Positions 1,878 through 39,318 of a DNA stretch of 64,000 nt are shown here, piece by piece (position 1 is the stretch's first letter; each line of letters starts with the position of its first letter). The stretch is from Candidatus Omnitrophota bacterium (lineage in GTDB: Bacteria > Omnitrophota > Omnitrophia > Omnitrophales > Aquincolibacteriaceae), in the NCBI GenBank assembly GCA_903820505.1, contig CAIJHQ010000045.1, positions 79,625 through 143,624 of the forward strand. Reading direction: 5' to 3'. The notes beneath the pieces were generated by a model. The model did no database searches. It had not been told where the DNA came from and saw only the letters and a program-made list of their open reading frames with translations. Made by a program: the position numbers and the translations under genes.

Positions 1878-3659
1878 TCAAAGGATCGCGTAGATCGCGT
1901 ACTCGTATCGCGGATCCGCCGGGGCAACACCGCGATAGATCGCCTTGAAATATTTGGTATCGCGGACAAGATTGCGGATGTTACGGTCCGAAAGGGCGCC
2001 CTTTGGGTCCACGGGACCGGCAATCAGTACGTGCGTGACTCCCTGCAGTTTTATAAAGGCGATCGCGTCCGCCGCGGTCGTAAAACGCGTATCGTAACGG
2101 GTCTTCGCGCGAAACTCCGGCTCACGGATCAGGACACGATCAAAATAAAACCCTCGGACCTCATAGGCGTTCAGGATTATCGCTTTCCGCGGCAGGTTCG
2201 CGTTCACGAACCGGGACGCCGGATAAGACCTCTCCACGCGGGACAAATAGTCCGCCTCCGACTCAAGTCCCAACGCCGCTCCATACCCGTCCCTTCCATG
2301 ATAAAAGGCCGCTCCCAGATCAAGAAAAAGTGCCAAAAAGAACAGCCCTCTTACGAACCGGGACGCCCATTTCCCCAGCTCTGGCCGGGATATACAAAAA
2401 CCGATCGGCACCACCCAAAGAGCACACGCCGGAAAAAGAAACCGGAGGTTCTGCCGCGGTAGAAAAAGCCAGAGGACCAGGTAGATCGCAGAAAAAAAGA
2501 GCAGATTGTTAACAGTCTTCGGACGGTTCCGGATCAAAAAGACGCCCGGCAGGAACGCGAGATAAAGAACGCCGACCCGCGCCCACATACCCCCAAAATG
2601 CGCCGGATCCATGGTCATGAACCACGGAGTCAACCAAGGAACCATCCCCTGGATCTTCTTGGCCTGATAACCTTTTTCCCCGAAATAAAGAAAACTCCCC
2701 TCATACGCGTAGGACCGGAAATACCAGACACAGCCGATGAGGAACGCGACCAACGCAAAAACTGCCAAAGCCGAAACCGAACTTTTCAGTGAAATGCGCC
2801 TGCTGACCCATTCGAGGAATAAACCAAGTGATATTGCGATCGCCGCAAACGCGGCAAGATACTTGACCCCGAGAGCAAAACCCAGAAATGCGCCGGACAG
2901 CACGGCCCAACGGATCTCGTGATGTTCACTCCACCGGATCGCGGCAAAAAAACTGAAAAAGAGAAAAAAGGTAAGGGCAATATCGTTGTAGGCGATGGTC
3001 ATCTGATTGAAAACGCCGGGAGTCAGCCAAAAAACCAGCGAAGCGATCCCGACCCAGGACCTGGGCAAACACCTTTTCTCGATCGCCAGAATACCAAGGA
3101 CCGTCCCCAAGGCGGTCATGAGATGAAAAAGGTTCGCCATCCGGGTACCGTCCCACATGACCGAAAGGACATAGAACTGATTCAGCAATAAGGGAAAAAC
3201 CGAATTGACCCCGTACGGTACGTAATAGATGCAACCCGCCAGCGCGAACCGTTTGGGGATATCCAAGTGATACGCCAACGCATCATGGGCGGTAGAAGGG
3301 ATCAGGGCCTGGACCACGGCTAAAAGGAACAAGATCACCAGCGCCGTCGCATAAGGCGTAAACCAGGTGGCGCGGGCGATAACCCTCCTCACCAGGGAAA
3401 GCATCCTCGGAGAATAGAAAAAAACCGGCAGTGATAAGACGAGGAACGATCCGTAGAGAGCAAGGGTATGAAATCCGCCGCAATAGCCGACGGCAAAAAT
3501 GATCAGCCCGATCGTTCCGAAACCAAGACAGAACGCGAAGGCGAACCGTTCGGTCAAAGAATCAAAAAAGAATTCCGCGCGCGTAAGGATCCGGTCTCCC
3601 CAAAAAGCGGACACCAGCGAGACCCAGGCCACAAGCAGGAGAGAAACGATCTGCGCCAT
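1878..3659 (-). CDS. Polytopic membrane protein, putative GT-C-fold glycosyltransferase with a C-terminal soluble domain.
   Basis: 593 aa with more than 10 predicted TM helices, followed by a ~150 aa soluble C-terminus. It lacks the clear DE motif of GT39, so the family assignment is weak. Its position directly downstream of a GT2 polyprenyl-P-sugar synthase suggests a donor-acceptor pair. Confidence 0.45.
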   Translation of the reverse strand: MAQIVSLLLVAWVSLVSAFWGDRILTRAEFFFDSLTERFAFAFCLGFGTIGLIIFAVGYCGGFHTLALYGSFLVLSLPVFFYSPRMLSLVRRVIARATWFTPYATALVILFLLAVVQALIPSTAHDALAYHLDIPKRFALAGCIYYVPYGVNSVFPLLLNQFYVLSVMWDGTRMANLFHLMTALGTVLGILAIEKRCLPRSWVGIASLVFWLTPGVFNQMTIAYNDIALTFFLFFSFFAAIRWSEHHEIRWAVLSGAFLGFALGVKYLAAFAAIAISLGLFLEWVSRRISLKSSVSALAVFALVAFLIGCVWYFRSYAYEGSFLYFGEKGYQAKKIQGMVPWLTPWFMTMDPAHFGGMWARVGVLYLAFLPGVFLIRNRPKTVNNLLFFSAIYLVLWLFLPRQNLRFLFPACALWVVPIGFCISRPELGKWASRFVRGLFFLALFLDLGAAFYHGRDGYGAALGLESEADYLSRVERSYPASRFVNANLPRKAIILNAYEVRGFYFDRVLIREPEFRAKTRYDTRFTTAADAIAFIKLQGVTHVLIAGPVDPKGALSDRNIRNLVRDTKYFKAIYRGVAPADPRYEYAIYAIL

Positions 3660-3789
3660 GATGTCAACCCGCCCTATGCATTACGAGAGAAACAAAATAA
3701 GCTCCGAACACCGCCAAAACCCACAGAAACCAGAGCCCTTTGAGAACGGTTGCGATCAGCGAGGAGCGGTCAGGACTGGCCACGGTCCG

Positions 3790-4515
3790 TTATCCGGTCA
3801 TTCTGAAACGGTTTTTCTGAAAACGAAACCACCAAACCTTCAGGAGGGCCTCGAATACAATGTGGCGTGAGATCTTCGAGTCGCCGGCTTTGCGGTCCGT
3901 GAACAGGATGGGAGTTTCGATGATCTTGAAACCTTTTTGGAGAGCGCGGTATTTCATTTCGATCTGGAAGCAGTATCCGTCCGAATGAATGTTGTCCAGG
4001 TCGATCGTCTCCAGCACCTTGCGACGGTAGCAGATATACCCCGCGGTCATATCATTCACCGATACGCCGAGGATGATCTTGCTGTAAAGGCTCGCCATCT
4101 GGCTTAAGAGGACCCGGTAAACCGGCCAATTGACGATCTTCCCTCCCCGCATCCAACGGGAACCCACAACGATATCGCAATTTTTGATCTTTTCGAAAAA
4201 AACCGGCAAATAACGCGGACGATGCGATAGGTCGGCGTCCATTTCCATGAACAGATCGTAATCACGCGCAAGTCCCCATTGGAACCCTGCCAGATAGGCC
4301 GGCCCAAGCCCCTGCTTTCCAGGACGCCGGAGCAGGTGAATACGCGGATTCTTCCGTGCGAACGACCCAACAAGGTCCCCCGTGCCGTCAGGAGAATTAT
4401 CATCGACGACAAGCACCTCGATGCCCGGATCCACGTTCATCAGGCGCCCAAGCAGCCGTTCGACGTTATCTGCTTCATTGTAAGTCGGTATAACGATCAG
4501 CGTTTTCATGGTCAT
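3790..4515 (-). CDS. GT2 polyprenyl-phosphate sugar synthase (DPM1/ArnC-like).
   Basis: Begins MTMKTLIVIPTYNEADNV and contains VVDDNSPDGT and a DAD motif. This is the typical dolichol-P-mannose synthase-like GT-A architecture, ~240 aa with no TM tail. Its ATG overlaps the stop of the upstream GT-C gene (ATGA at 4512-4515). Confidence 0.8.
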   Translation of the reverse strand: MTMKTLIVIPTYNEADNVERLLGRLMNVDPGIEVLVVDDNSPDGTGDLVGSFARKNPRIHLLRRPGKQGLGPAYLAGFQWGLARDYDLFMEMDADLSHRPRYLPVFFEKIKNCDIVVGSRWMRGGKIVNWPVYRVLLSQMASLYSKIILGVSVNDMTAGYICYRRKVLETIDLDNIHSDGYCFQIEMKYRALQKGFKIIETPILFTDRKAGDSKISRHIVFEALLKVWWFRFQKNRFRMTG

Positions 4516-5993
4516 TTCTCTTCAAGGCGGAAGATCAGAAATGATCTGTCCGGGATCGCGACGGGTTTAAAATGCGAACGGACATAGTCCGAAAATTTTG
4601 TGGAGGCATAATACTCGGAGGGTCCGGAAATAACAAGAAATTTAGCCCCGTCCCTCCTTAACTTCTCAAGCCAGAAAATGGGATCGCCATAACCTTCCTG
4701 GAACAGCTGTTGGTGCCGCGCCTGCTTGATAAGATGCCGCCCCCCGGCTTTGGACATTCCAAGATCAAACGACCAGCCTTTCCTGTGACAATAATAAAGG
4801 AGCCCGGCACTGGGCCCGTATTGAACGATCACCACATCCTCCGGCCGTGATATCTGCTGGACAACGGAGCCGATGCGCGGCATATTGCGCTCCACCTCTG
4901 AAAACCGCGATGCCGGCGGAAGGTAATAACGCATCGCAAGCAAAATAAAGGCCCCGCAAAACAATAGTTTCACGGTGAGTCCCCAACGATCCCACAAAAG
5001 TCCCAGGAGTGACGTGATCAGGATGGCCACGGCCGGCGCCCCACAGAGTAGATAAAAAGGATGGTCCATGACCTTCTGAGGCAGAATAAGGATCAGGCTG
5101 AGGCTCCCCCACGCCCAGACCAGCAAAGCGACAGGTTCTTTCTTCAAACGGAACAAGCTGATCAACGCGAATGGAAAAAGAATCGGTGTGCACCAGTAAG
5201 TCCCGAGGATGCTTAAGATCCTCTTATAGAAATCAAAGGACTTGAACAGGGACGTGATCAAAAAGCGGCCCTCTCCGGACTGCGTAAAGAGACTTGTCTG
5301 GACATGCGCAGCGTCGTGAAATTGCAGCACATGCATCCAAAAAACCCACGCGGCGACAGGGATGGCAGCGCCGATCAAAAAAACAAACGTCGTACGAAAT
5401 GAAAATTTTTCACGGTTGATCCAGATCAAAAAAGCCGGCAGCGCGATCCCAAAATGGATGCGTGCCGTCAAGGCGAGCGAGAACACTAAGCCGCTCAGGA
5501 GGATCTTCGCCAACACGGCGGAATCCAGCAGCCAAAAGGAGAGCATTAAGAAAAAAAGAGCGGCCGCTTCATTCTGGAACGTGATCCCCGACAAAAGCAC
5601 CATCGGGAAAAAGGAAAAAAAGAATACGGTGAGGAGCGCTTTTTTTTCTGTCAAAAAACGCCGGGCGATCGGAAAGAGTAAGATCGTCGCCCCAAAGACA
5701 AAGATCCCGGCCTGGAACCTCCCCCACCACGGGATGCCGCCGCCCAGCAGGGTATTCGAAAGAAACGCGACCAGAGAACCGAACGGATAATACAGCAGGT
5801 GAAGCCCGGGAGCTCCATTGACCAGGATAAAGGTCCGCGGAATAAAAAGATCCGCGACAGAACCTCCGCCCATCATTTCCGCCATCATGGCATTAACGGC
5901 CTGATAACTCCCGAAATAACCTCCGAGCGGATTGGAAAAGGCCGGACACTTCATCATCAATGTAACGAGCGCGATTCCTAAGGAAATAAGCAT
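4512..5993 (-). CDS. GT-C glycosyltransferase, ArnT/PMT_2 (GT39/GT83)-like.
   Basis: 493 aa polytopic protein. The segment WGRFQAGIFVFGATILLFPIARRFL resembles the conserved ArnT/PMT_2 helix (aRlpsal-fg-l-vlllyllarrl). Stop overlaps the downstream GT2 start. Confidence 0.65.
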   Translation of the reverse strand: MLISLGIALVTLMMKCPAFSNPLGGYFGSYQAVNAMMAEMMGGGSVADLFIPRTFILVNGAPGLHLLYYPFGSLVAFLSNTLLGGGIPWWGRFQAGIFVFGATILLFPIARRFLTEKKALLTVFFFSFFPMVLLSGITFQNEAAALFFLMLSFWLLDSAVLAKILLSGLVFSLALTARIHFGIALPAFLIWINREKFSFRTTFVFLIGAAIPVAAWVFWMHVLQFHDAAHVQTSLFTQSGEGRFLITSLFKSFDFYKRILSILGTYWCTPILFPFALISLFRLKKEPVALLVWAWGSLSLILILPQKVMDHPFYLLCGAPAVAILITSLLGLLWDRWGLTVKLLFCGAFILLAMRYYLPPASRFSEVERNMPRIGSVVQQISRPEDVVIVQYGPSAGLLYYCHRKGWSFDLGMSKAGGRHLIKQARHQQLFQEGYGDPIFWLEKLRRDGAKFLVISGPSEYYASTKFSDYVRSHFKPVAIPDRSFLIFRLEEK

Positions 5994-5994
5994 C

Positions 5995-6876
5995 TTATAC
6001 TTTCTTGGCGACCATGATCGAACGGTTCTGAAGTCCCAATATCCGCGCGATCCCGAACAAAACCCGCAGGGCCAGGCGTGTCAGGAACGCGAATTTATAC
6101 CGCGCAAGATCGGTTTCTGTCTTCCAGTATTTAACGGCCGCAAAGCTGTTCCGCTCCAGAAGGCCTTTCAAGCCTCTTCCTGAAAAATAGCTCGTATGCT
6201 CAAGAACATACCACTGGGCTGCGGGTCCCCGAACTTTTCCGAAACTCAGCTTATAAAAAAGTGTCGCGAGGATCGATATCAGATTGGGATCGTACGGGAT
6301 GGCGACCAGAAGGCAGCCTCCCGGTTTTAGAAGCTCATGACATTTTGCGAGCAATTTCCCGGGGTCCTGAGGATGCTCGATCACGTCCCACAGCACAACA
6401 ACGTCAAAGCGACGCTGACTCGAATAGCGGAATACATTTTCCGCGATCCCCTCGATACCCCTTGACCGGGTTTTCTCGATGTTTTCCGTGCTGGAATCAA
6501 TACCAAAAACATTCCATCCTCGCGACTTTGCAAAAAATAAAAAATCCCCGGTACCACAGCCGATCTCGCATAAGTCACGCCCCGCGACACTTTTTCCCGC
6601 CTCGGTCAGAGCCCTGTCGTAATCCCGGGCCGTTTGGCTCGTGGATCTCAGCGGCTCATATTCATAGTATTGCTCGAGAGCCTTATTGATCTCACTGATC
6701 GAATCCGAGTTCTGATAGATCTCGATCTGAGATTTTTCATCCAGAGAAGGATCAAGATATTTGACCCCGCAGTCGCAAACGTAAACGGAAAAGCGCTCCA
6801 GTTTGATAAGCGGCTTCCCCATACGGCGCGTTTTGCATGCGGGACACTGGTTTTTCTCGGCAAACATTATGGCCAT
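5995..6876 (-). CDS. Class I SAM-dependent methyltransferase with an N-terminal zinc-ribbon.
   Basis: N-terminus has CPACK-x16-CDC (Cys4 ribbon). SAM motif I is LCEIGCGTGDF and the post-I acidic residue is in GIDSS. Sits 1 nt from the upstream GT-C gene. Confidence 0.75.
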   Translation of the reverse strand: MAIMFAEKNQCPACKTRRMGKPLIKLERFSVYVCDCGVKYLDPSLDEKSQIEIYQNSDSISEINKALEQYYEYEPLRSTSQTARDYDRALTEAGKSVAGRDLCEIGCGTGDFLFFAKSRGWNVFGIDSSTENIEKTRSRGIEGIAENVFRYSSQRRFDVVVLWDVIEHPQDPGKLLAKCHELLKPGGCLLVAIPYDPNLISILATLFYKLSFGKVRGPAAQWYVLEHTSYFSGRGLKGLLERNSFAAVKYWKTETDLARYKFAFLTRLALRVLFGIARILGLQNRSIMVAKKV

Positions 6877-6936
6877 GACAGAACCCCACGAAGACGAGCA
6901 TGGAACCTAGCTGCCCGGCAAAATGAAGACCCTGAT

Positions 6937-9315
6937 CTAGCTGTGTTCATTTGATCTTCCTCTTTTGATATCGTAAATGCTAAGCAAAAAAATCCCCGCA
7001 AAAAAGACAAGAGAGTAAGGGAGGACCGTCCGCCATAGCGGTTGAAAGCTAAAATCGACCCGGTAACTCCCCGCCCGGGGTATCAAGATCGCCCGAAAAC
7101 ACCCGTTCGCCCGGTAGATCGGGGTTGAGATCCCGTTGATCACAGCCTTCCAGCCCGGATAAAAAAGATCGCTCATCACAAGAAAGCCGGCCGCCGGCGC
7201 AGAAAGCGACAGCGCGACCCGGTCACCCGAATCTTCCGTGACTACGGCTTCCTTGAACAACGCGTGATTCCGCAGGTTCTGGAGCGTGGGATCTTCAAGA
7301 TAAACTTCCCTGCCAAGATCCGGCTCTCCGCGTTTCAAAGCCGAATTAAATTCGGCCCGGGATCTCGAGACGGCCCGGGAGACATAAAATGCCCGCGGAA
7401 GGGCTCGCGAATTCAATAAAAGCACGTGATCCGGAGCTTCTTCGAAGGTAGTCCACGCCGGCAAATCCAGTTTCCGGCTCGACAAAAGCCAACGTACCGA
7501 TAAAAAATCCAGGAGCGGTTTTTGCGCCCGCAAGGCCTGAAGGTCAGGAAGCACGGCTCGCTGGGAATCGTTGACATCGCCAAGACCCGCCATCAGATCG
7601 AAATAATCTTTCGGAAGAAGCGGCGAATATCCGCCCAGGACCGGCATGCCGTAGAGCATGTTATTGTGCGGCATAATAGGCAGCGCATCCGCGGAAGGCA
7701 GGTCAGAATAAAAACGGTGCAGACGTCCCTGGACGGGATCGTTCTTGATCGCGGCAATAATCGGAGAACCGGGCCGCAGGAACGATCTGGGTTCTAAATT
7801 ACCTTTGACCGTTGTAAAACCATAGGCATAAAGATTCGCAAAGATCAGGATACCGGCTGCCCAATAATAGCGTTGTTTCCAATTCCTCTCACCAAGGAAC
7901 AACCGTCGTACGACAAGGAGCGTGACCAGCATGAAAAGAATGAAGATCAGGTTGAACGGCTCACAGGGCTCGCTGATCCTCAGAGCCGCCGTAAAAAAAC
8001 CATGCACTTTCCCGGTGTAGACTTCGAACGAATGGGGGTGTATCGCGGAACCAATATAATGGCTCCGGACATATTCCAGCGCGATCCCCTTGATCGGCTT
8101 CTCGAACCAGAGCAGGCAGTGGCGAATCAGCGGCAATAAAAGAATGGCCAATGCGGTCAGAACACCCCATAGAGTCCAGGAACGGCGCGCTTCCGGTGAC
8201 GGTAATTTCCCGATCCCGAACGAGCACAGCACCGCGCCAAAACATCCGGCAAAGTACAGGAACTTCGACGGCGTCCGGAAACTGCCGAATCCGGTCCATT
8301 TGATCAGGTAATAATAGAGCGGATTGTACTTCCCAAGAGCGAGCAGCAAGCTGAGCACAAGAAGCGCCAGGATCACTTTTTCATGCCAGGATTTTTTTGT
8401 CAGAATGGCGTGGATCAAGAAGAAGAGCCCCAGGGCCGAGAAATACAGCTCCGCCTTGAGGACCCCGTCCCAATGCGGGAAAAAAAGGGTCCAAAGCGCA
8501 AGCGGATTGACCGAGCCCAAAAAAGCGAAGTCAACCGGGTAATAATAGCGGTTGGAAAGTTTTGCGAGTTCCCAGGTGGAACCCAGTTGCGGTAGCGCCA
8601 TCAGACCCGAAGCCAGCAGCACAAGACCGTAAGAAAATAAATTCTTCAAAACGAATGGGGCCCGCCTTGGCCCCTGGCCGTCCTTGAAAAGGCGAATCAA
8701 AAAATATACGGAAGAGAAAAGCACAGAATAAACTGCATACTGCAGGTATCCGGCCGTAAACTGAAAAGCATAAATGACCGCCAAAAATCCAAGGTAGCCC
8801 GGCCTGTTTTTTTTAAAGAACTTCTCGATCAGGAAAAGCGCCAGCGGGAACCAGACGAGAGTTTTCAGCGAAATGATATTGTAATAGTAGCCGCCTTCCG
8901 CCGTACCGAAAAGGTAGATGAGCGTACCAAGAATGGCCGCTTCCGTTTTTACACCGATCTCACGGACGAACAGATAAAAGAAACAGGCCGCGATGAAGAA
9001 ATGGAACAGAATGCCATAGGAATAGGCCACATCGAACGGCAGGAACTTATAAAAGACCCAGTTAACGATATAAAGGGCCCCCACCTGCCCTTCCGCCAGC
9101 AAAGGGAATCCTGTCGCAAAAAGGCTCGTCCACCATGGCAGCTGCCCGTGAGCGAGGGCCGCGCTGTAAAAAAAAGCCCATGGGTAATGCTGCTGCCGGT
9201 GGTCCCCGCTGTAAAAGCCGGTACTCAACGTCAGCGTCTCCGCGAAGAACAGCATAACCGCGGCGGCAAAGATCAGGAATGGCGCGTATTTTTTAAGCGC
9301 GTTCGACACCGGCAC
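6937..9315 (-). CDS. YfhO-family GT-C membrane glycosyltransferase.
   Basis: 792 aa with many TM helices. The N-terminal motif SGDHRQQHYPWAFFYSAALAHGQLPWWTSLFATGFPLLAEGQ matches the YfhO D-x3-Q-x2-P-W-GxxPxW signature. Apparent GTG start. Overlaps the upstream flippase-like gene by ~23 nt. Confidence 0.75.
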   Translation of the reverse strand: MPVSNALKKYAPFLIFAAAVMLFFAETLTLSTGFYSGDHRQQHYPWAFFYSAALAHGQLPWWTSLFATGFPLLAEGQVGALYIVNWVFYKFLPFDVAYSYGILFHFFIAACFFYLFVREIGVKTEAAILGTLIYLFGTAEGGYYYNIISLKTLVWFPLALFLIEKFFKKNRPGYLGFLAVIYAFQFTAGYLQYAVYSVLFSSVYFLIRLFKDGQGPRRAPFVLKNLFSYGLVLLASGLMALPQLGSTWELAKLSNRYYYPVDFAFLGSVNPLALWTLFFPHWDGVLKAELYFSALGLFFLIHAILTKKSWHEKVILALLVLSLLLALGKYNPLYYYLIKWTGFGSFRTPSKFLYFAGCFGAVLCSFGIGKLPSPEARRSWTLWGVLTALAILLLPLIRHCLLWFEKPIKGIALEYVRSHYIGSAIHPHSFEVYTGKVHGFFTAALRISEPCEPFNLIFILFMLVTLLVVRRLFLGERNWKQRYYWAAGILIFANLYAYGFTTVKGNLEPRSFLRPGSPIIAAIKNDPVQGRLHRFYSDLPSADALPIMPHNNMLYGMPVLGGYSPLLPKDYFDLMAGLGDVNDSQRAVLPDLQALRAQKPLLDFLSVRWLLSSRKLDLPAWTTFEEAPDHVLLLNSRALPRAFYVSRAVSRSRAEFNSALKRGEPDLGREVYLEDPTLQNLRNHALFKEAVVTEDSGDRVALSLSAPAAGFLVMSDLFYPGWKAVINGISTPIYRANGCFRAILIPRAGSYRVDFSFQPLWRTVLPYSLVFFAGIFLLSIYDIKRGRSNEHS

Positions 9316-10234
9316 GCCCCATCACAAGGTATTGGTTAAGAAATGGCAACCCGAGAATTCCGGGGACAAGATAGCGCAAGGTGGCAAAGAGCCCGATAAA
9401 AGCCATCTGTCCCGCCGGGGCATACGGAGCGAACAGAACGATCATGGCCGCATCCCGGGACCCGATCCCCGCGACCGTCATAGGGATCATCCCCACGAAG
9501 ATCGCCATGGGCACAAGCCCGAAAACATGGGCCCAGGCCACGTTCGCATGGATCGCCTGGAAAACAAGATAGAACTGAATGAGGTGCAGGAGCCAGAGAA
9601 AAAGCGAGACGCCCCAGATCGTCACCAGAAATTCCGGGTCGCGCTTGATCTCATTAAGATAATCCTGTGCATCGTGGAGAAAGCGCCGCAACTTTTCGGT
9701 GAATTTGTTGCCGCCCAGGGCGGTCAGCGCCCATTTTTGATCGAAATTCAAGAAATAGATCACGGGAAAGACCCCGATGACCAAGAGGGCGAACCCGGCA
9801 ATGATCAAAGCCGTCTTAGAAAAACTCGCGGCGCCCAGCGCCCCGATCAGGGCCATCGTGCTCAACGACGCGGTGTCCACGTAGCGCTCAAAGATCACCA
9901 CGTTCGTGGCCCGCTTGAGGTCGGTCCCCCATTTGCTCTTCAAAAAAACGGCCTTGCTCAGATCCCCCATTTTGGACGGGAGAAAAACATTCAGGGAAGA
10001 CGCCGCGAGGACAAGCTTGGTGGATTCCCAGAGCGTGATCCCGGCTTTTTTTTGGATCAAGAACTTCCATCGCCAAGCGGGGATCACGATCAGTGGAAAG
10101 AACATAGCGAGCGCGAGAAAGAATGTTCCTTTATCAAGGCGGACGACGTACTCGCGGAAGGCACGAAGATCGATCCGGGTGAAAATGACCGCCAAAATAA
10201 GAACCGTAAAAGCAAAGGCCAGAAGACGCTTCAT
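9293..10234 (-). CDS. UPF0104 / LPG_synthase_TM family membrane protein (flippase-like domain).
   Basis: The ORF track starts at 10378, but the likely start is the internal ATG at 10234 (MKRLLAFAF...). That ATG overlaps the stop of the upstream gene (ATGA). Signature RW-KFL ... NVFLPSKMGDLSKAVFLK is typical of the MprF-flippase-like UPF0104 family. About 8 TM helices. Confidence 0.7.
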   Translation of the reverse strand: MKRLLAFAFTVLILAVIFTRIDLRAFREYVVRLDKGTFFLALAMFFPLIVIPAWRWKFLIQKKAGITLWESTKLVLAASSLNVFLPSKMGDLSKAVFLKSKWGTDLKRATNVVIFERYVDTASLSTMALIGALGAASFSKTALIIAGFALLVIGVFPVIYFLNFDQKWALTALGGNKFTEKLRRFLHDAQDYLNEIKRDPEFLVTIWGVSLFLWLLHLIQFYLVFQAIHANVAWAHVFGLVPMAIFVGMIPMTVAGIGSRDAAMIVLFAPYAPAGQMAFIGLFATLRYLVPGILGLPFLNQYLVMGRAGVERA

Positions 10235-11862
10235 GGAAAGGTGTGCTCGAAGTGGACTTCGCGTTTCTCGTTGAGCTCCCGGAGGACAGGACCCAGCGAG
10301 ACCCAAGGAAGCAGGTTCCCCTGCTGAAAAGGCTGGCTGGTAGCAATATAAATAAAGGTCGGGTCGGAACCGATCCAAAGGTCCTCGACCCGCACGGAAT
10401 CGTCGGTAAGCCGGATCGAATACTTGACCTTATCAAGCGAGCGCAGGGGGATCTCTTTCCGTATCGAGACCGGTACCCGTTTTAACCGTTTCGTGATCGC
10501 TTTTTTCTGCAGTAACGTCCGCACGAAATTCGCCGGCAGGAACCGTGCGATCAGGACAAGAAAAGCGCGGAACAAAAGAAAAGACCCGGGTTTGAAAACA
10601 AGGTCGCGGTGTTCGTAGCACCCCCCCTCGATCACAAGCGTGTCACCGCGGACTTCGTGCTTCCAATCCGCGACGACCTGCGATATGAATTTCTGTCTTT
10701 TGTCCGTCGCGCCGACAAAACCGCAATCGCTGAATTTAAGCGTTCCGTTCCGGAAGTACTTGGCCGTCCCGCCTTTCCTTGTCGAGATCACGGCGTAATT
10801 TTTATCATCGGATACGACATAAAGTCCGGCTTGTTCGAAGAATTTTTTCAGGACGCGTCCGCCATCCTTTGACCGGACCTCCCGCGGCTCAAAAAAATCC
10901 CCGTGGGCTTGCAGGAAATTATACGTGTAGTGAATGAATATGCGGTCGTCATCGATGCAAGAACGTGTTTTTTTCTGAAGAGACAGAAGAAAAGCGTCCG
11001 CGGTCGGAACGGCCCAAGGGCTCAGTCCCCCCATGATCTCAAAACCGTGCGGCATGAAATGGAAGGTATTACGGCTTCCGTATTCGCCGCCGAAACTTCC
11101 GTCGGGGTGCATAAAATATGAGGCGAATTCGATCGCCCTGCAAAGCGGTTCCACGACAGCGGGATCGGATGACTTTTGATAATACTTGGCGAGAAAATCA
11201 ATGGTGAACGTCAGGTATCCGGGATCGCAGCCCTCGTATTCCGGGAACCAGCCTTCCTCGGTCTGCAGGGCGAGCAGCTTTGCCAAGCAGGCTTCCGCCT
11301 TCTCTTTGAATGCGGGGTCATTCGTCAAAAGGAAAACGTTGTAAAGGCCCAGGACGATCAATGCCTTGTGATTGGATAGCACGCCCGACTCTTTAATACC
11401 TTCAGTCGCCAGATAATTGGCGCGGCGTTTAAAAAAATCGAGGAATCCCGCCGCATCGGACTTTGTGACCAGCAGCGCTTCCGTGCAGGCGTAGAGGGAG
11501 AACGCCGTGGCGCCGGCCGCGCGTTCGAACGGGAAATAATCATCACAGGAACCGTCGGGGTGGGACGAGTGGCGGGCAAAATCGATCCCGGCCATGACAG
11601 TTTCCTGGATGCGCGCGTTCCCGTAATACGGGTTCGCCGGGTGTTTCAGGGAAAACACAAGGGCAAGCGGCAGGACGGATTCCTGATACATCCCGCTCGG
11701 AAAATCACTGCACCGGTAATGCCAGAAACCACGGTCGAAGCAACCATAGGTCGAACTCAAGCGGTTCCTGTCCGCGAGCTCCAGCAATTTCGGGATGTAC
11801 TGGATACCTTCGTTAAAATATAGATCTTTCAGGCGGGTGTCTGTCATAGGTTTTTGGATCAT
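10231..11862 (-). CDS. Hypothetical protein of 543 aa, soluble, with no family assigned.
   Basis: Clean ORF with an ATG start and codon usage like its neighbours. It has two related motifs, HPDGSCDDYFP and HPDGSFGGEYG, which suggests an internal repeat or toroid-like fold. No signal peptide is obvious. Confidence 0.5.
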   Translation of the reverse strand: MIQKPMTDTRLKDLYFNEGIQYIPKLLELADRNRLSSTYGCFDRGFWHYRCSDFPSGMYQESVLPLALVFSLKHPANPYYGNARIQETVMAGIDFARHSSHPDGSCDDYFPFERAAGATAFSLYACTEALLVTKSDAAGFLDFFKRRANYLATEGIKESGVLSNHKALIVLGLYNVFLLTNDPAFKEKAEACLAKLLALQTEEGWFPEYEGCDPGYLTFTIDFLAKYYQKSSDPAVVEPLCRAIEFASYFMHPDGSFGGEYGSRNTFHFMPHGFEIMGGLSPWAVPTADAFLLSLQKKTRSCIDDDRIFIHYTYNFLQAHGDFFEPREVRSKDGGRVLKKFFEQAGLYVVSDDKNYAVISTRKGGTAKYFRNGTLKFSDCGFVGATDKRQKFISQVVADWKHEVRGDTLVIEGGCYEHRDLVFKPGSFLLFRAFLVLIARFLPANFVRTLLQKKAITKRLKRVPVSIRKEIPLRSLDKVKYSIRLTDDSVRVEDLWIGSDPTFIYIATSQPFQQGNLLPWVSLGPVLRELNEKREVHFEHTFP

Positions 11863-11871
11863 CGGGAAAGG

Positions 11872-12735
11872 TCAGGAACGGTTGTTATAAGCCACGATCA
11901 GATCACTGATAAGTCCGAGGGACGCGAGCATGATCGCCGTCATAAAAATGATGATGTCGGACTCTTGAAGAGTATGCGTGAATTTGAAACTGAGGAACGC
12001 CTTTAGGACACCAGTAACAGCGATCAGTCCTGCCGCCGGGATAAATACGCGCAATGGATTGAAATACATGACCATGCGAACAACGGTTTTCAAATAAGCC
12101 GCCGTGTCTTTGACGGGATGGAATTTCGATATTCCGATACGCGGGTGATAGGCCGTCGGAATATATTTTACGGCATAGCCGTTCGCCAGAAAGGCGAGCG
12201 TCATGGTCGTCACACAGGAAAATCCGTCCGGGAGGACCCAAAGGTATTTTTTCATGACGTCCTTCTTGAAGGCCTTGAGTCCGGTATTCAGATCGGGGAT
12301 GTCGGTACTCGTCAGGTAACAAGCCAGCTTGCGAATGAGCCATTTAGCAGGGGTCCGAAGCAGTTTCAAGGTACCCTGTTCGCTCGTGCGCGCACCGTTG
12401 ACCTGGTCGTATTCCGGGAAGTATTTAAGCAAATTGGGAATATCCGAGGCTTCGTATGAGCCGTCGGCATCCAGCATAACAATGACCTGTCCCTCGGCGC
12501 TCATGATCCCAGTGCGGCGGGAAGCGCCCGAACCTCTTGTAAGCGGCCGGCGCACGACCCGGACCCCCTTTGATTCGGCGATCGCGGCCGTGCAGTCCGA
12601 AGAATGGTCATCAACGACAAGGATCTCGTAGGCCTGCTTGCTGCCTTTCATCGCGGCCTGAACGTCATCGATCACCTTTGCGATGGCAGCCTCTTCATTA
12701 AACGCGGGAAGAACAATGCTGACTTCGGGCTTCAT
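11872..12735 (-). CDS. GT2 polyprenyl-phosphate sugar synthase with C-terminal TM helices (GtrB/CsbB-like).
   Basis: Contains VSIVLPAFNEE, VVDDHSSD and a DAD motif. A C-terminal ~70 aa region has two hydrophobic helices, as in GtrB-type undecaprenyl-P-glycosyl synthases. Confidence 0.8.
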   Translation of the reverse strand: MKPEVSIVLPAFNEEAAIAKVIDDVQAAMKGSKQAYEILVVDDHSSDCTAAIAESKGVRVVRRPLTRGSGASRRTGIMSAEGQVIVMLDADGSYEASDIPNLLKYFPEYDQVNGARTSEQGTLKLLRTPAKWLIRKLACYLTSTDIPDLNTGLKAFKKDVMKKYLWVLPDGFSCVTTMTLAFLANGYAVKYIPTAYHPRIGISKFHPVKDTAAYLKTVVRMVMYFNPLRVFIPAAGLIAVTGVLKAFLSFKFTHTLQESDIIIFMTAIMLASLGLISDLIVAYNNRS

Positions 12736-12919
12736 ATCCCCTTCCTTTTCTTAGGGTTACAAACGGGCTCATTCTATCAACTTTCCCTACAACTCACAAC
12801 CTCGACCTGGCATGCCCGGCACCGCTTCACTAACCCGGAACAACGACAACGGGAGGGCTGGAGAACCGAAGCAAGCATTGTCCCGGAAAATCGCCGCAAA
12901 GAAGCGGCGCTCGAGCGAA

Positions 12920-14665
12920 TTAAATTTTCTCCAGGCCAGGCTGTCCTAGCTTCCGGTCATAGGTGCCGCGGTAAAAAGTCCGTCCCGGATAAGCGGCCAT
13001 GAGCTCTCTATTACGATCACCGAGGTCGTGGGCGTAAAGGATCCGGCCGTCAAGAAACGGGCTGTTGCGAACGGCATCTTCTTCGGCCATGACCAGCTTG
13101 TCGCCAAGGAACCCGTGAATGAAAACAATGGCGGGCTGTTCCACCGTTCGTTCGGCCAGATCATAAAGAGCCCGGCGCTGGCGGCTGGCTTCCCCGGTGA
13201 ATTCTGCGTGCTTGATAAATAGTAGGCCCGAGCTCGCTATAGATGTCGCGACAAATACGAAGAGAAATTTACGCCCGCGGACACTGCATGTCTTCCACCG
13301 GGTCACGATCCAGTCAGCGACGGAAATACAGAGGAATGGCAACCCCTCCCACCAATAGCGGGGCCCCCACTGGTTCCCACCCCAGGAGTAGTAAAGAAAA
13401 TAGGCAAGAGCGAGAAAAACCATGGAAAAACGGAAAAACGCCTTAATGCGGTCCATTCCTTTAATCTTAGATAGCAAAAAAAGATAGGCGGCAACAAACG
13501 CCGGAGCAAACCAATCCATGAGATAAAAAACGCGGGCGATCAGATAGAAAAATCCGTCGACCGGCGTGTAATGCCCCCTCTTGAAACCAAGACGCTCCCA
13601 GGATTGGTAGTATTTGAGCGGAGTTTTGAACAGCTTCCCTGTAACTGCAATGTTTAGGAGGAACATAAGCGCTACAAAGGACCCGACGATCGCAACAAAA
13701 ACCATCTCGGCTTTACGGAGCTGAGGACGTTTGAATCTAAAGGGGATCCAACCAAAACGCTCACTGCCCGTTGTCGCGCCACCGGGGCTCTTCCGGTCGA
13801 AAAAAAGCGGGAGATAATGAGAGAGGAGGAATGGAACTGCGATCGCGAACATGGTAAGCGGCCGGGTTATCAAACCGTAGCCGACCCCAATCCCGCACAG
13901 GATCGCCCAGCCGACCGGATCCTTCCCCTGTCCATAGGCTTCATGCCAACGCAAGAAGGCATACAAAAAGACCGCTATCGTGAGCAGGCAGGTTGCATGG
14001 GAAAAATAAGCCGCGGCCGTGAACATGAAAAAAGGGCTTAGACACGTCATGATCAGCCCCAGAACGGCGGCGGGACGGCCAAACAACCGTTCCCCCGAAA
14101 GATATAAGAAAAAGACCGCCGTTGCCGCCATGACAGGATTGAGCCAATCCACGATGTTGAACCGGAGACCGAAAGCCCATATCAGAGGCCATCCGGGAGG
14201 ATAAACGCTGAACCACTTCCCTCCCTTCATCCCGACATGGACGACCTGGAAAAAATCCGCGAACTGCGGAATGGGGACAAAAAGCTTTCCCTTCCGGAGG
14301 CACTCCGCAAGAAAATAGCAGGAGTGCTCGTCACCGGAGCTGAGAAACGAATGGAGAACGTGCCGGTTGATCCAGTAGAGAACAAGAACTAAAAAGCCTA
14401 AGGCGAAGAAGCCGAGCGCAAATCCAAGAGCTTTTGACGGGCCACGGCTGGGATCCGTAATTTTTGACGAAAATAGAAAATCCGGAAGAAGATAGTAGCC
14501 CAGGAAGGCAACGAGGATCGTGACGCCCAGGAGCAGGATAGAGTCCGCGGTCATGAAAAGATTGCGTCCCCACACTTGCTGGACATGCGGGACCCATAAG
14601 GAGGCCGCGCAACAAAAAGACCCGAGAAGCAAAAGCCCAGTCTGTTTTAGATATCCCTTGCCCAT
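12920..14665 (-). CDS. GT-C glycosyltransferase, GT39/PMT_2-like.
   Basis: 581 aa polytopic protein. It has the loop-1 acidic motif SGDEHSCYFLAE and the segment NPVMAATAVFFLYLSGERLFG (ArnT/PMT_2 signature). A 184-bp gap separates it from the downstream GT2. Confidence 0.65.
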   Translation of the reverse strand: MGKGYLKQTGLLLLGSFCCAASLWVPHVQQVWGRNLFMTADSILLLGVTILVAFLGYYLLPDFLFSSKITDPSRGPSKALGFALGFFALGFLVLVLYWINRHVLHSFLSSGDEHSCYFLAECLRKGKLFVPIPQFADFFQVVHVGMKGGKWFSVYPPGWPLIWAFGLRFNIVDWLNPVMAATAVFFLYLSGERLFGRPAAVLGLIMTCLSPFFMFTAAAYFSHATCLLTIAVFLYAFLRWHEAYGQGKDPVGWAILCGIGVGYGLITRPLTMFAIAVPFLLSHYLPLFFDRKSPGGATTGSERFGWIPFRFKRPQLRKAEMVFVAIVGSFVALMFLLNIAVTGKLFKTPLKYYQSWERLGFKRGHYTPVDGFFYLIARVFYLMDWFAPAFVAAYLFLLSKIKGMDRIKAFFRFSMVFLALAYFLYYSWGGNQWGPRYWWEGLPFLCISVADWIVTRWKTCSVRGRKFLFVFVATSIASSGLLFIKHAEFTGEASRQRRALYDLAERTVEQPAIVFIHGFLGDKLVMAEEDAVRNSPFLDGRILYAHDLGDRNRELMAAYPGRTFYRGTYDRKLGQPGLEKI

Positions 14666-14683
14666 AGCCTCCGCAATCCCCTG

Positions 14684-15757
14684 TTATTCATTCTCCCGGA
14701 TCACGTTCGCTGCCAGAAGATTTCCCTGCGAGGTCCAGTGCCAATCATTCTTGATGTAATAAACTTCGAGACCGTCCTTTGCGACGGCATCATTGAATTC
14801 CGGCCTAAGGTTGATAAGATCGACCTTTTCACGATCCGCGAAACGCCGGATCGACCTCTCCAGGGAAGTTCTTCGCGTACTTTCCGCCCAATCCTTGGGA
14901 GGCAATAAAACCAAAATAGGGGTTGCCTGATCGCGCCGGACTTCCAGGATGAGCTTCTGAAGAATGGCCCGCCCGATCATCCATTCTTCCGACGTATCGG
15001 GATCGATAAGGCGCATGTTTTTGGCAAGTTTGATCAATGGTTTCTTGGCCACCCGGTAGAGGACGCTCCTGTTAAGAACTTTTTGAAGATCACTCTGCTC
15101 CAACAACGGGGGAAATTGATCCGTAGTCAAAGAAAAGGGCGGAGGGACGGGCACGTTGTGCAGAATCAGATCTCCCTTCTCGGAAAGTGAAAAGTAGGGT
15201 TTGACGTGCCCGGAATCAGCGAACGAACGCGTGCATCGCCAGAAAGCTTCGGGAAAAACACCTATCAGAACGATGTCGGGATGATATTGTTTCGCGATCT
15301 CCCGGTAAGAAAGATATATCTGGTCGATCCCGTATCCCGGCACCCCGAGATTCAGGACTTCCCGGTTTCCGCCGTCGGCCTCCAGAACGGCAGGAAAGGT
15401 TTCCTGATCCTGGACGCCGAATCCAAATACAAAGCTGTCGCCAAGCGCCGCGATGCGGATGACTCCGGCCGGCTTTTTGATGGCATATTCCCGGGTCCCG
15501 CGAAAACCGGCGGAATTCGTGTGAACGGTCACCGAGGGGAAATTCGGGGATTCCAGTACGGCGGTCTTATTCTTCTGGGAGTACCAGCCAAGGACCGGAT
15601 GATGCTCGACCCAGGAATTCTCAGGCACATTCACCCATCCCATCCGGGGCTTTTCAGGAAACTTGATCCGGTCGATCTTGACAACACGCAGAACAACCTC
15701 CGCGAGGGTTAACGCAAGCAACAGCGCCAAGATCGACACAAACAGGTTCTTTTTCAT
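14684..15757 (-). CDS. SGNH-fold protein with a DxHW motif (AlgX/AlgJ-like periplasmic O-acyltransferase or esterase), signal-anchored.
   Basis: Block I is GDSFVFGFGV. The C-terminus has IKNDWHWTSQGN, a D-x-H-W-T motif as in the AlgJ/AlgX family. The N-terminus is a hydrophobic anchor, MKKNLFVSILALLLALTLA. The start was moved to the internal ATG at 15757; the ORF track begins at 15835. Confidence 0.65.
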   Translation of the reverse strand: MKKNLFVSILALLLALTLAEVVLRVVKIDRIKFPEKPRMGWVNVPENSWVEHHPVLGWYSQKNKTAVLESPNFPSVTVHTNSAGFRGTREYAIKKPAGVIRIAALGDSFVFGFGVQDQETFPAVLEADGGNREVLNLGVPGYGIDQIYLSYREIAKQYHPDIVLIGVFPEAFWRCTRSFADSGHVKPYFSLSEKGDLILHNVPVPPPFSLTTDQFPPLLEQSDLQKVLNRSVLYRVAKKPLIKLAKNMRLIDPDTSEEWMIGRAILQKLILEVRRDQATPILVLLPPKDWAESTRRTSLERSIRRFADREKVDLINLRPEFNDAVAKDGLEVYYIKNDWHWTSQGNLLAANVIRENE

Positions 15758-15835
15758 GGGACCCTTCGATAGCTTTTGAAGTGCAAGGAATATCGCATTG
15801 CCGCATAGGCTATCAGAAATCGATACAGCCGACAA

Positions 15836-16603
15836 TTGACATTACGCATTAAAAACATTAATCTTTCCCCTATGAATGCCGCGACTTTTATCAGTTTCAT
15901 CACCCCGATCTACAACGAAGAGTTGAACATCGCCGGGATGCTCAGAAACTTCTTTGCCGTCCTGAACGCCCATCCGGAATGGAACTGGGAAGTGATCTTG
16001 ATCGAGGACGGAAGTAAGGACAAGACCCGCGCTGTCCTTCAGAAAGAGATGTCCCAATACCCCAACGCAAAGCTGATCATCCATGAAAAGAACCAAGGAT
16101 ATACCCGCTCCCTCAAAGACGGGATCGCAGCCTCTCGCGGTAAGTACCTGATGTACATCGGAGCGGATGAGGAGTTCGATTCGTCCGAGATCCCCGCCTT
16201 TGTTGATATCCTGAAAAAGAACGAGACAGATGTCCTGCTGGGTGTACGCTGGCAACGCAACGCCTACCAGCTTTTCCGTTTCTTCCTGTCCGTGATCTAC
16301 ATTTTCCTGCTCAATTACCTGTTCAAGATCCGCATCAACGATTACAACTGGTCGCAGGCCTGGAGCCGAAAACTTCTTGATCATATCGACCTGACCTCCG
16401 CTTCTCTTTTTATACTTCCCGAGATCATCATCAAGGCCCATGACCTGGGTTACCGCATCAAAGAGATCCCCTCGAACCACCGCGGCCGCCAAGCCGGAAA
16501 ATCGTCGGTCAACATGAAGATCATGGGATCGGCGCTTTGCGAGGGGCTGAGATTCTGGTTCTACCGAAGATCAAAAAAATACCGCCCGGCAAAAAATCCC
16601 TGA
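15836..16603 (+). CDS. GT2 glycosyltransferase (GT-A fold).
   Basis: This is the only plus-strand gene in block 1. Motifs: ISFITPIYNEE, ILIEDGSKD, GADEEF (DxD). It has two C-terminal hydrophobic stretches. By eye its GC content is lower than that of its neighbours. The start may instead be the internal ATG at ~15872. Confidence 0.75.
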   Translation: MTLRIKNINLSPMNAATFISFITPIYNEELNIAGMLRNFFAVLNAHPEWNWEVILIEDGSKDKTRAVLQKEMSQYPNAKLIIHEKNQGYTRSLKDGIAASRGKYLMYIGADEEFDSSEIPAFVDILKKNETDVLLGVRWQRNAYQLFRFFLSVIYIFLLNYLFKIRINDYNWSQAWSRKLLDHIDLTSASLFILPEIIIKAHDLGYRIKEIPSNHRGRQAGKSSVNMKIMGSALCEGLRFWFYRRSKKYRPAKNP

Positions 16604-16663
16604 CAAGAGACCAGTAGCATTCCTCGGGCCGGTGAAGAAATTGGTCAGAAAACCATCACGGCG

Positions 16664-18364: not shown

Positions 18365-19071
18365 CAGGGATGCAGCCGTCGGATCTTCAGAACGTCCCGG
18401 AACATCCTCAGCGGATCGCTCAGGACCTGAACGCGGCTTTGGGCGGAATTCCGCCAGATCACCGGGAGCTCAAGCACACGGTAGCCGCGTTTTTGCGCCA
18501 GGTACACGATCTCGACGTCAAAACTGAACCCGTCGAGTTTCTGTTCCCCGAAAAGTTTATGGGCCGCTTCCCTGCGGAAACACTTGAACCCGCATTGGGA
18601 ATCCCGTACGCCTTTGAACGCCCAGCGCTGCGCGATAAGGTTAAAGACCTTTCCCATCGTTTCTCGGAGGAAGCCCTGGTGGATCTCGATCTGGGAATCC
18701 GGAAGCGCCCGTGAACCGATCGCGACGTCGCAATCTATCCGGAGATAATCAAGAAAACGGGAAACTTCAGTGATCGGCGTGGAAAGGTCCGCGTCCGTAA
18801 AAAGGATGTACTGTCCGGTCGCCGCGAGCATCCCCTGCCGTACGGCGTACCCTTTGCCGCGGTTCCGGGGAGTGGTCAGGATCTTGTGCGGGAAATCCAC
18901 GAGTTTTTCCTCAGCGATCGCGACCGTTCGGTCCCGGCTCCCGTCATCTGAAACAAGAACTTCGGAATCGTAGGATTGCTTCTTCAAAAAATCAAGGACC
19001 GCATCCAAAGTGTGCGGTAACCGTAAATCTTCATTGTAGGCCGGAATGACCACCGAAAGGTAAGGCGCCAT
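18364..19071 (-). CDS. GT2 polyprenyl-phosphate sugar synthase (DPM1/ArnC-like).
   Basis: Motifs: LSVVIPAYNE, VSDDGSRD, TDAD. 235 aa and soluble. Lies immediately downstream of the UDP-xylose synthase gene. Confidence 0.8.
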   Translation of the reverse strand: MAPYLSVVIPAYNEDLRLPHTLDAVLDFLKKQSYDSEVLVSDDGSRDRTVAIAEEKLVDFPHKILTTPRNRGKGYAVRQGMLAATGQYILFTDADLSTPITEVSRFLDYLRIDCDVAIGSRALPDSQIEIHQGFLRETMGKVFNLIAQRWAFKGVRDSQCGFKCFRREAAHKLFGEQKLDGFSFDVEIVYLAQKRGYRVLELPVIWRNSAQSRVQVLSDPLRMFRDVLKIRRLHP

Positions 19072-20995: not shown

Positions 20996-20997
20996 TG

Positions 20998-22703: not shown

Positions 22704-22758
22704 AGATTCACCCTGTTGGTGGTGGAAACATCCTTGGTTTTAACGTTCCCGATTCCCG

Positions 22759-39168: not shown

Positions 39169-39318
39169 TCTATTTCCTTCATCGCTCGGTGCCGCCTTCA
39201 AACGGAATTCCTCCACTGGAAGTCGCTGCGAGAGTGGAACACCCGAGGCGCTTGGGCAGCAGAATACCCCTCATACTACAAATTTATACATAAAGGGCAA
39301 AGGCAGGCGGTCGGTATT

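Follow-up and report, generated by a model that had tools for sequence, protein, structure and literature searches.

How would a lipid-linked sugar cross the inner membrane when the gene cluster that makes and uses it contains no GtrA-type flippase? This question is raised by a locus in a 64,000-nucleotide (nt) stretch of DNA from a Candidatus Omnitrophota bacterium (contig CAIJHQ010000045.1, positions 79,625 to 143,624; hereafter the window). On its minus strand, a family 2 glycosyltransferase (GT2) of 287 amino acids (aa), a 543-aa protein (U543), a stand-alone UPF0104 protein, a 792-aa membrane protein and a methyltransferase are encoded in this order. An earlier note on this DNA described the locus as a YfhO glycosylation module in which UPF0104 replaces GtrA. 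Our analysis shows that the conserved unit is GT2-U543-UPF0104, which would feed lineage-specific glycosyltransferases of the GT-C type. With moderate confidence, we interpret it as a GtrB/ArnC-style (Gtr/Arn-like) pathway that includes an auxiliary editing enzyme and a scramblase of MprF type.

The genes and the minus-strand order given in the earlier note were confirmed by gene calls and profile searches. The methyltransferase is real and carries the zinc-ribbon motif described there, but its gene lies just outside the positions 6937-12735 to which the module had been assigned (Table 1). Both tight junctions that had been reported were read in the sequence. The longest open reading frame (ORF) of UPF0104 begins with TTG at 10378, and its Pfam match starts only at residue 52. 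The gene in fact starts with the ATG at 10234, in an ATGA junction with the stop codon (TGA) of the U543 gene (CCATGAAG); the same 313-aa protein is given by independent gene calls stored with public metagenome contigs. At the other end, UPF0104 stops at 9293, inside the 792-aa gene, which starts with GTG at 9315; the two genes thus share 23 nt. An identical gene order was found on independent contigs and metagenome-assembled genomes (MAGs; loci L001-L005, L007, L084-L086, L088, L092, L093 and L124). Thus, the arrangement is not due to chance. The 184-nt gap 5' of the GT2(287) gene is the sole sizeable one on that side and is the probable start of the sub-operon. A consensus scan placed a promoter-like site in this gap (12799-12771, TTGTGA-17-TAGAAT with a TG extension). 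Since the promoter and terminator scan overall was not above the shuffled expectation (12 found vs 11.6 expected), this site is a positional hint only. Long plus-strand ORFs in this region, for example a 331-aa ORF (9332-10327, plus strand) antisense to UPF0104, resemble shadow ORFs. The AT skew of the plus strand is strongly positive (0.13-0.31) at 2001-10000 of the window, because T-rich membrane proteins are encoded on the minus strand.

UPF0104 matched PF03706 over profile positions 2-302 of 302 (146.1 bits vs cutoff 33.4) and TIGR00374 (82.9 bits vs cutoff 43.2), and has the fold of the MprF flippase (scramblase) transmembrane (TM) domain. It consists of the TM domain only: no aminoacyl-phosphatidylglycerol (PG) synthase domain (DUF2156) is present, and the model of bifunctional MprF (NF033480 bifunc_MprF) scored 18.5 against a cutoff of 600. 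Because the synthase domain is missing, the protein is not MprF itself, with which its sequence identity is 10-13%. A PDB search with the sequence profile of the UPF0104 clade returned no MprF chain and no PDB chain at all. Ten charged or polar intramembrane residues are invariant in the clade (R55, D91, K94, E116, D120, H217, Q220, R260, D261 and R287). The TM domain of PaMprF is a promiscuous, energy-independent scramblase, which in its authors' proposal owes its substrate preference to the attached or neighbouring enzyme (PMC11980842). The stand-alone UPF0104 protein is a candidate translocase.

The GT2(287) protein possesses a D89-A-D91 motif and two C-terminal hydrophobic (TM) helices, as expected for the GtrB-like enzyme with a TM tail that had been described. 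Among solved structures, the best match was ArnC (9hwj, 1e-11), and DPMS (5mlz) and GtrB (5ekp) were also among the best; the alignments reach residues 244-247 for ArnC and DPMS and residue 256 for GtrB. The NCBIfam AglJ model aligned over its full length (E 2.5e-35, under cutoff), and the dolichyl phosphate (Dol-P)-hexose transferase model also matched. No NCBIfam equivalog cutoff was reached (AglJ 122 vs 325, ArnC 64 vs 529). By homology, GT2(287) is predicted to be a synthase of the polyprenyl-phosphate sugar type (GtrB/DPMS/ArnC/AglJ-like).

U543 matched no Pfam or NCBIfam family, and its homologues gave only sub-threshold hints of Pec_lyase, GH127 and alginate lyase. A PDB profile search with U543 reached only squalene-cyclase-like proteins at E ~0.1. 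In the AlphaFold2 model (pLDDT 89.7, pTM 0.92), residues 1-320 form an (alpha/alpha)6 toroid, and a beta-sandwich follows at the C-terminal end (338-541). Foldseek matched this whole architecture to PL33, PL8 and PL12 lyases and to DS-epimerase (E ~1e-7), with identities of 8-14%. We are therefore confident that the modelled fold resembles those of sugar epimerases (AGE superfamily and dermatan-sulfate epimerase) and uronate lyases. U543 has no signal peptide. In the model, a conserved hydrophobic and basic (amphipathic) helical hairpin (425-457), in which R448 and Q452 are invariant, juts from the sandwich. The hairpin and the absence of a signal peptide fit a cytoplasmic U543 that would act at the membrane surface.

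More than 2,264 homologues of U543 were found, all hypothetical, in many phyla including the candidate phyla radiation (CPR), Hydrogenedentota and Tectimicrobiota. The family retains 42-66% identity across phyla and about 70 invariant positions, and many His, Tyr, Glu, Asp and Arg residues are invariant among homologues. No paper describing the family or the GT2-U543-UPF0104 module was found in the literature searched. Some homologues (P0187, P0190, P0201, P0211, P0215 and others) bear a precomputed PF25840.1 label, which was not reproduced by the Pfam search; this recent entry may cover part of the family. Domain fusions of U543 were considered as a Rosetta-stone clue and rejected, the long ORFs being over-extended starts in GC-rich contigs.

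The 792-aa protein had been named YfhO. No Pfam family matched it even at E<=10, so there is no direct YfhO profile match, but 20 of its 25 aligned full-length homologues (26-43% identity, >90% coverage) match PF09586 (best 1.4e-28), and one is named YfhO family protein by NCBI (P0276, E 4.6e-97). The name can thus be kept transitively, through the homologues, for what is judged to be a divergent YfhO. The protein has about 12 hydrophobic segments or TM helices plus a final TM helix. D38, just after TM1, is invariant in the homologue alignment, as are P45 and E75. On the inferred sidedness, D38 is expected in the first extracytoplasmic loop, as for the GT-C catalytic loop. A polytopic N-terminal domain followed by a large, presumably extracytoplasmic C-terminal portion also agrees with the YfhO architecture. 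A PDB profile search with this protein gave nothing meaningful.

The methyltransferase has an N-terminal CxxC...CxC zinc ribbon (CPAC...CDC) and a hydrophobic C-terminus. In some Omnitrophota relatives, YfhO carries it as a C-terminal fusion within a 1109-aa protein (P0242, L005 at 10920-14249, and L084), where it comes after the last TM helix and a basic stretch. It follows from this placement that the methyltransferase is located in the cytoplasm and is physically linked to YfhO; the active site of the GT-C is periplasmic while the fused methyltransferase is cytoplasmic. O-methylation of the sugar, as had been suggested, does not follow from the fusion, which shows the tie to YfhO only. Homologues of the methyltransferase were also seen in U543 loci of other lineages (L097, L116, L139, L143, L146, L155 and L163).

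The neighbourhoods were compared in two sets, 80 UPF0104 genome loci and 80 U543 metagenome loci (160 related loci). The nearest relatives of UPF0104 are from Candidatus Omnitrophota MAGs (44-66% identity). The next tier (33-38%) is mostly from filamentous cyanobacteria, together with Desulfobacterota, Chthoniobacterales, Anaerolineae and Thalassospiraceae. Across the UPF0104 set, the conserved core is GT2, then U543, then UPF0104. U543 lies directly upstream of UPF0104 in 43 of the 68 loci that have enough sequence, and a tail-anchored GT2 of ~327 aa is present in 36/59. The GT2 density around UPF0104 is 10.3 per 100 kb within 3 kb vs 0.5 at 6-10 kb, and that of proteins with at least 8 TM helices and at least 430 aa is 11.2 vs 1.9. 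Homologues flanked by GT2 and GT-C-like genes occur in cyanobacteria, Desulfobacterota, Verrucomicrobiota, Chloroflexota and Alphaproteobacteria. The adjoining GT-C family varies by lineage (YfhO, PMT/PMT_2 or GT87-like). In Leptolyngbya-type cyanobacteria, a 505-aa GT87/PMT-like GT-C precedes the core, and elsewhere the core is flanked by PMT_2 GT-Cs or by a ~590-aa polytopic family.

Of the co-occurrence that the earlier note wanted checked, the enrichment of GT2 and large polytopic or GT-C proteins near UPF0104 was observed, whereas YfhO directly follows UPF0104 in Omnitrophota only. The most conserved partner of UPF0104 is not YfhO but U543, the protein that had been passed over. From the side of U543, a GT2 lies within 6 kb in 39/58 loci, large polytopic proteins occur in 29/33 well-covered loci, and a UPF0104 homologue is present in 37/80. 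The link of U543 with the GT2/GT-C pair is closer than that of UPF0104. Two Omnitrophota loci without U543 have shuffled orders, GT2(287)-UPF0104-GT2(235)-GT-C(566) in L006 and GT2(235)-UPF0104-GT-C(566)-GT2(287)-YfhO in L008. In every Omnitrophota arrangement that contains UPF0104, it lies between a GT2 of the polyprenyl-phosphate-sugar-synthase type and a GT-C.

Absence of GtrA from the window, as the earlier note had it, was borne out: no ORF of 70-250 aa with at least two real hydrophobic segments is present in the 64 kb, which implies that a GtrA-type protein is absent from them. A GtrA-like ORF is not a conserved neighbour in either set of loci (1/80 U543 loci and none of the UPF0104 loci). 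The sole one, of 170 aa with 4 hydrophobic segments in a GtrA-type pattern, is at L112:9679-10191. Since this locus contains both proteins, GtrA and UPF0104 are not strictly exclusive. Substitution of GtrA for UPF0104 in clusters without UPF0104 was looked for and not seen.

Two side observations concern the neighbours of the core. The ~590-aa polytopic family has no Pfam match and lies beside UPF0104 and/or U543 in cyanobacteria (L048, L051, L052, L055, L059 and L080; representative L052:7393-9156) and in metagenome loci (L096, L099, L103, L107 and L132). It may be an unrecognised GT-C family. Upstream of the Leptolyngbya-type GT-C-GT2-U543-UPF0104 block, a creatininase-family amidohydrolase (PF02633 5e-79) and a ROK-family kinase are encoded on the same strand, about 3-6.5 kb upstream of UPF0104 (L016, L021, L024, L030, L031, L033, L034, L036, L038, L040, L041, L050, L053 and L061). 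Both genes may belong to this pathway.

What the analysis establishes is the identity of the genes, their folds, the junctions within the operon, and the synteny and enrichment across phyla; whatever concerns activity, sugar, carrier and acceptor is inferred. In the pathway that we favour, the tail-anchored GT2 would work at the cytoplasmic face and charge polyprenyl phosphate with a sugar taken from a nucleotide donor, as its homology to ArnC, DPMS, GtrB and AglJ suggests. The cytoplasmic, membrane-hugging U543 would then edit the lipid-linked sugar before export, most likely by epimerase- or lyase-type chemistry; fold and synteny are the basis of this step, whose counterparts elsewhere would be ArnD, DprE1/E2 or, in the pentofuranose systems, the SDR epimerase. 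The MprF-fold UPF0104 would equilibrate the edited lipid across the inner membrane as an energy-independent scramblase, whose effective substrate would be set by its closeness to the synthase. Its fold, the published scramblase activity of PaMprF and its conserved position point to this role. The YfhO-type GT-C (in other lineages PMT_2- or GT87-like) would transfer the sugar to a periplasmic acceptor, with the methyltransferase presumably tethered to the cytoplasmic C-terminus of YfhO.

In a more specific version, GT2-U543-UPF0104 would constitute a bacterial pathway that is widespread but has so far not been described, whether or not a GT-C accompanies it. U543 would represent a new alpha/alpha-toroid family that edits the polyprenyl-phosphate sugar at the membrane surface, for example by C5-epimerisation or elimination of a uronic acid, and the MprF-fold scramblase would deliver the product to GT-Cs. 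We put this forward tentatively, as possible rather than probable. Uronate C5 chemistry is attractive for U543 because a UDP-glucose dehydrogenase (Ugd) gene is a neighbour.

The pathway resembles several known systems. The CsbB/GtcA/YfhO system is established in Gram-positives (PMC5836110, PMC7389260). In it (CsbB, also GtlA, and YfhO, also GtlB, of Bacillus and Listeria) and in the GtrA/GtrB/Gtr* systems of Shigella and Salmonella, the same tail-anchored GT2 and GT-C stand side by side, with a membrane protein between them at the flippase position. Here, however, their GtrA/GtcA protein (about 120-150 aa, 4 TM) is missing and a 313-aa MprF-fold protein is found instead, a cytoplasmic 543-aa enzyme and a YfhO-tethered methyltransferase are added, and the host belongs to a diderm candidate phylum. 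Three-component systems can swap the flippase family (MATE for GtrA) according to Kelly et al. (2024), and may include cytoplasmic auxiliary epimerases that act on undecaprenyl-phosphate sugars (PMC11127046). The Arn system (ArnC-ArnD-ArnE/F-ArnT) and the pentofuranose systems follow the same logic of synthase, cytoplasmic editing, flippase and GT-C, and ArnC is the best solved match of GT2(287). They differ in that the editing enzyme here is an alpha/alpha-toroid with a beta-sandwich and not a deformylase or SDR (short-chain dehydrogenase/reductase), and the flippase is of MprF type and not of SMR or MATE type.

The translocase role that the earlier note proposed had already been predicted, so the flippase idea itself is not new, having been put forward earlier for archaea. 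Makarova, Galperin and Koonin (2015) recognised UPF0104, including the AglD C-terminal domain, as homologues of the MprF flippase. They described a conserved archaeal neighbourhood in which UPF0104 (arCOG00899) is accompanied by an AglD-like GT2 and an enzyme of PMT/STT3 type, and suggested that all COG0392 members act as flippases for lipid-linked saccharides (PMC5898192). COG0392 already carries a predicted-flippase name; the domain name PplT and a list of its glycosyltransferase fusions come from Hauser et al. As in our locus, the archaeal proteins are linked or fused to an AglD-like GT2 beside a PMT/STT3-like GT-C. However, the archaeal pathways are dolichol-based and have no U543-like partner, whereas here a bacterial stand-alone UPF0104 occurs in a GT2-U543-UPF0104 core across many bacterial phyla.

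Several results weigh against the pathway. Roughly half of the U543 loci are without UPF0104, and in four sister Omnitrophota clusters (L087, L090, L091 and L106) GT2-U543-GT-C is encoded without a UPF0104 gene in the surrounding ~9 kb. Because of these sister clusters, UPF0104 is frequent but dispensable, and export does not strictly depend on it. Within the island that surrounds the locus, UPF0104 accompanies only 1 of 4 GT2/GT-C pairs, and 22/80 UPF0104 homologue loci have neither a GT2 nor a large polytopic neighbour. The locus counts overstate the number of independent events, since many loci are from related cyanobacteria. The absence of GtrA applies to the 64-kb window, and GtrA, Wzx, MATE or DedA elsewhere in the genome is possible. 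No experiment connects any UPF0104 protein with a polyprenyl-phosphate sugar, and the flippase step of GpgF and HexF, stand-alone UPF0104 proteins of P. aeruginosa and C. difficile, is still unverified (PMC10128005, PMC12713373). As for the chemistry, AGE-type 2-epimerisation requires a free anomeric carbon, which a polyprenyl-phosphate sugar does not have. Moreover, U543 and UDP-glucose dehydrogenase co-occur in Omnitrophota and at one cyanobacterial locus only; because the co-occurrence is essentially confined to Omnitrophota, the uronic-acid link is a weak lead only. Of the claim that UPF0104 translocates polyprenyl-phosphate monosaccharides, its position between GT2 and GT-C in Omnitrophota and beside GT2 and GT-C-like genes in other phyla holds, but the protein is dispensable and these lipids are putative substrates.

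The strongest rival explanation, which we judge unlikely, is a glycolipid module of the HexSDF/GpgSDF type. GT2 would act on a glycerolipid or bulk membrane lipid, U543 would modify the head group, UPF0104 would flip the product, and the GT-Cs would be mere island neighbours. The hexSDF (C. difficile, PMC10128005) and gpgSDF (P. aeruginosa, PMC12713373) operons for glycerolipid glycolipids encode a synthase, a deacetylase and UPF0104. They are the only experimentally studied stand-alone UPF0104 operons, and they make HNHDRG or GlcN-PG and not polyprenyl donors, which counts further against our pathway. Their order of synthase, head-group-modifying enzyme and stand-alone MprF-like flippase is also the three-part logic of the GT2-U543-UPF0104 core. 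In addition, a large polytopic protein is missing within 5 kb of UPF0104 in 36/80 loci. The NCBIfam GlcN_PG_flip model matches UPF0104 weakly (2e-5), though its 24 bits are far under the cutoff of 320. The synthase separates the two cases: GpgS and HexS are GT-B enzymes (GT4/GT28) acting on diradylglycerol or PG, whereas the enzyme here is a tail-anchored GT2 nearest to ArnC, DPMS, GtrB and AglJ. Their modifier is a deacetylase, and the alpha/alpha-toroid U543 has no deacetylase match, so that UPF0104 is the sole component in common. Furthermore, those operons have no GT-C partner and their products are end-product membrane lipids, not glycosyl donors. Beside the present module, at least three GT-C-like families recur across phyla, which is not expected of random neighbours.

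In a second and rather less likely explanation, the carrier and not the donor is the substrate of UPF0104. Through promiscuous scrambling, the protein would bring free polyprenyl phosphate back to the inner leaflet once the GT-C has reacted (cf. DedA/UptA and DUF368/PopT), or it would relieve general bilayer stress; export of the loaded lipid would then fall to another protein or to the synthase itself. PaMprF scrambles many lipids with no energy input, the transport domains of MprF and DedA are discussed as interchangeable, the five GT-Cs of the island imply heavy carrier turnover, and the dispensability of UPF0104 in the sister clusters agrees with such a role. However, UPF0104 is encoded between synthase and transferase with translational coupling. 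Since a scramblase would move both loaded and free carrier, this explanation overlaps with the favoured pathway and does not exclude it.

That UPF0104 is a non-transporting membrane scaffold or regulator, which docks the soluble U543 and GT2 at the membrane, is very unlikely. In its favour, U543 is soluble with an amphipathic hairpin only, its gene is the most tightly linked to UPF0104, and E. coli YbhN reportedly has many interaction partners among lipid-synthetic enzymes (bioRxiv 10.1101/2022.03.11.483950). Against it, L006 and L008 retain UPF0104, GT2 and GT-C without U543, the invariant charged intramembrane residues are typical of a head-group path, and UPF0104 shares its fold with a protein of demonstrated scramblase activity.

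The locus forms one sub-operon within a ~22-kb island for envelope glycosylation, a dense series of envelope-glycan genes on the minus strand at 1.9-24 kb of the window, with 4 GT2, 5 GT-C, an esterase, a methyltransferase and sugar-nucleotide genes (Table 1). The GT2 genes are of DPM1/GtrB type and mostly form adjacent GT2/GT-C pairs with 1-4-nt overlaps (1878-19071), which suggests four separate lipid-linked donors. The 241-aa GT2, whose top NCBIfam match is PpgS/Dol-P-hexose transferase, is paired with the 493-aa GT-C through a 4-nt stop/start overlap (4512-4515), and the start of the 566-aa GT-C overlaps the stop of the 235-aa GT2 by 1 nt at 18364. The 255-aa GT2 is the sole plus-strand gene of the island and is also called on the contigs of relatives. 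The sugar-nucleotide genes gave NCBIfam matches to rmlD (9e-76), dTDP-glucose dehydratase (3e-126), rmlA (1e-73) and TuaD/NDP-sugar dehydrogenase (1.6e-156). Directly upstream of them (24079-29314), an 809-aa outer-membrane beta-barrel, weakly CT351-like, and a tandem pair of GGDEF diguanylate cyclases (460 and 481 aa) are encoded. The barrel and the GGDEF pair are consistent with a diderm host and with possible cyclic di-GMP control of envelope glycans. A 1524-aa ORF lies at 34642-39216 on the minus strand.

Table 1. Features of the locus and of the surrounding island, by position in the window.
Feature	Position	Strand	Evidence or remark
GT-C (PMT_2), 593 aa	1878-3659	minus	PMT_2 E 2.1e-8; 13 hydrophobic segments
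Second GT2, 241 aa, DPM1/PpgS-like, without TM tail	3790-4515	minus	PF00535 E 6.7e-28
GT-C-like membrane protein, 493 aa	4512-5993	minus	PMT_2 E 2.3e-5, just under cutoff; 10 hydrophobic segments
S-adenosylmethionine (SAM)-dependent methyltransferase (Methyltransf_23), 293 aa	5995-6876	minus	E 3.1e-23
Divergent YfhO-family GT-C, 792 aa	6937-9315	minus	assigned via homologues
UPF0104 / LPG_synthase_TM, stand-alone, 313 aa	9293-10234	minus	PF03706 E 2.1e-42 and TIGR00374
U543, 543 aa	10231-11862	minus	without Pfam or NCBIfam match
GT2, 287 aa	11872-12735	minus	PF00535 E 2.4e-25
Intergenic gap, 184 nt	12736-12919	minus	5' of GT2(287) gene
GT-C (PMT_2; LA_3751/LA_3752-like), 581 aa	12920-14665	minus	
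SGNH/GDSL esterase-like, 383 aa	14684-15835	minus	Lipase_GDSL_2 E 2.1e-10; LA_2490 family
GT2, 255 aa	15836-16603	plus	PF00535 E 1.4e-26
GT-C (PMT/PMT_2), 566 aa	16664-18364	minus	PMT E 6.6e-11
GT2, 235 aa, paired with 566-aa GT-C	18364-19071	minus	PF00535 E 1.9e-30
Sugar-nucleotide genes: UXS/ArnA-C-terminal-like SDR, RmlD, RmlB, RmlA, UDP-glucose 6-dehydrogenase	19074-24054	minus	

The five GT-C enzymes of the island hint at an unusually elaborate periplasmic glycosylation machinery in Omnitrophota. For none of the three-component systems has the membrane crossing of polyprenyl-phosphate monosaccharide donors been directly demonstrated; the evidence for GtrA, ArnE/F and the MATE candidate is genetic or contextual. 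The MprF-fold protein is a good test case for this step, because structures of its relatives have been solved and their scramblase activity can be assayed in liposomes, and the module can be tested because it is present in culturable cyanobacteria and Desulfobacterota. U543 represents a large, strongly conserved and unannotated family, whose fold and fixed genomic context lead to a concrete, testable hypothesis. If the more specific version of the pathway is true, MprF-type proteins would be a third or fourth independent class of polyprenyl-phosphate-sugar exporter, and U543 would be the founder of a new family of enzymes that modify lipid-linked sugars.

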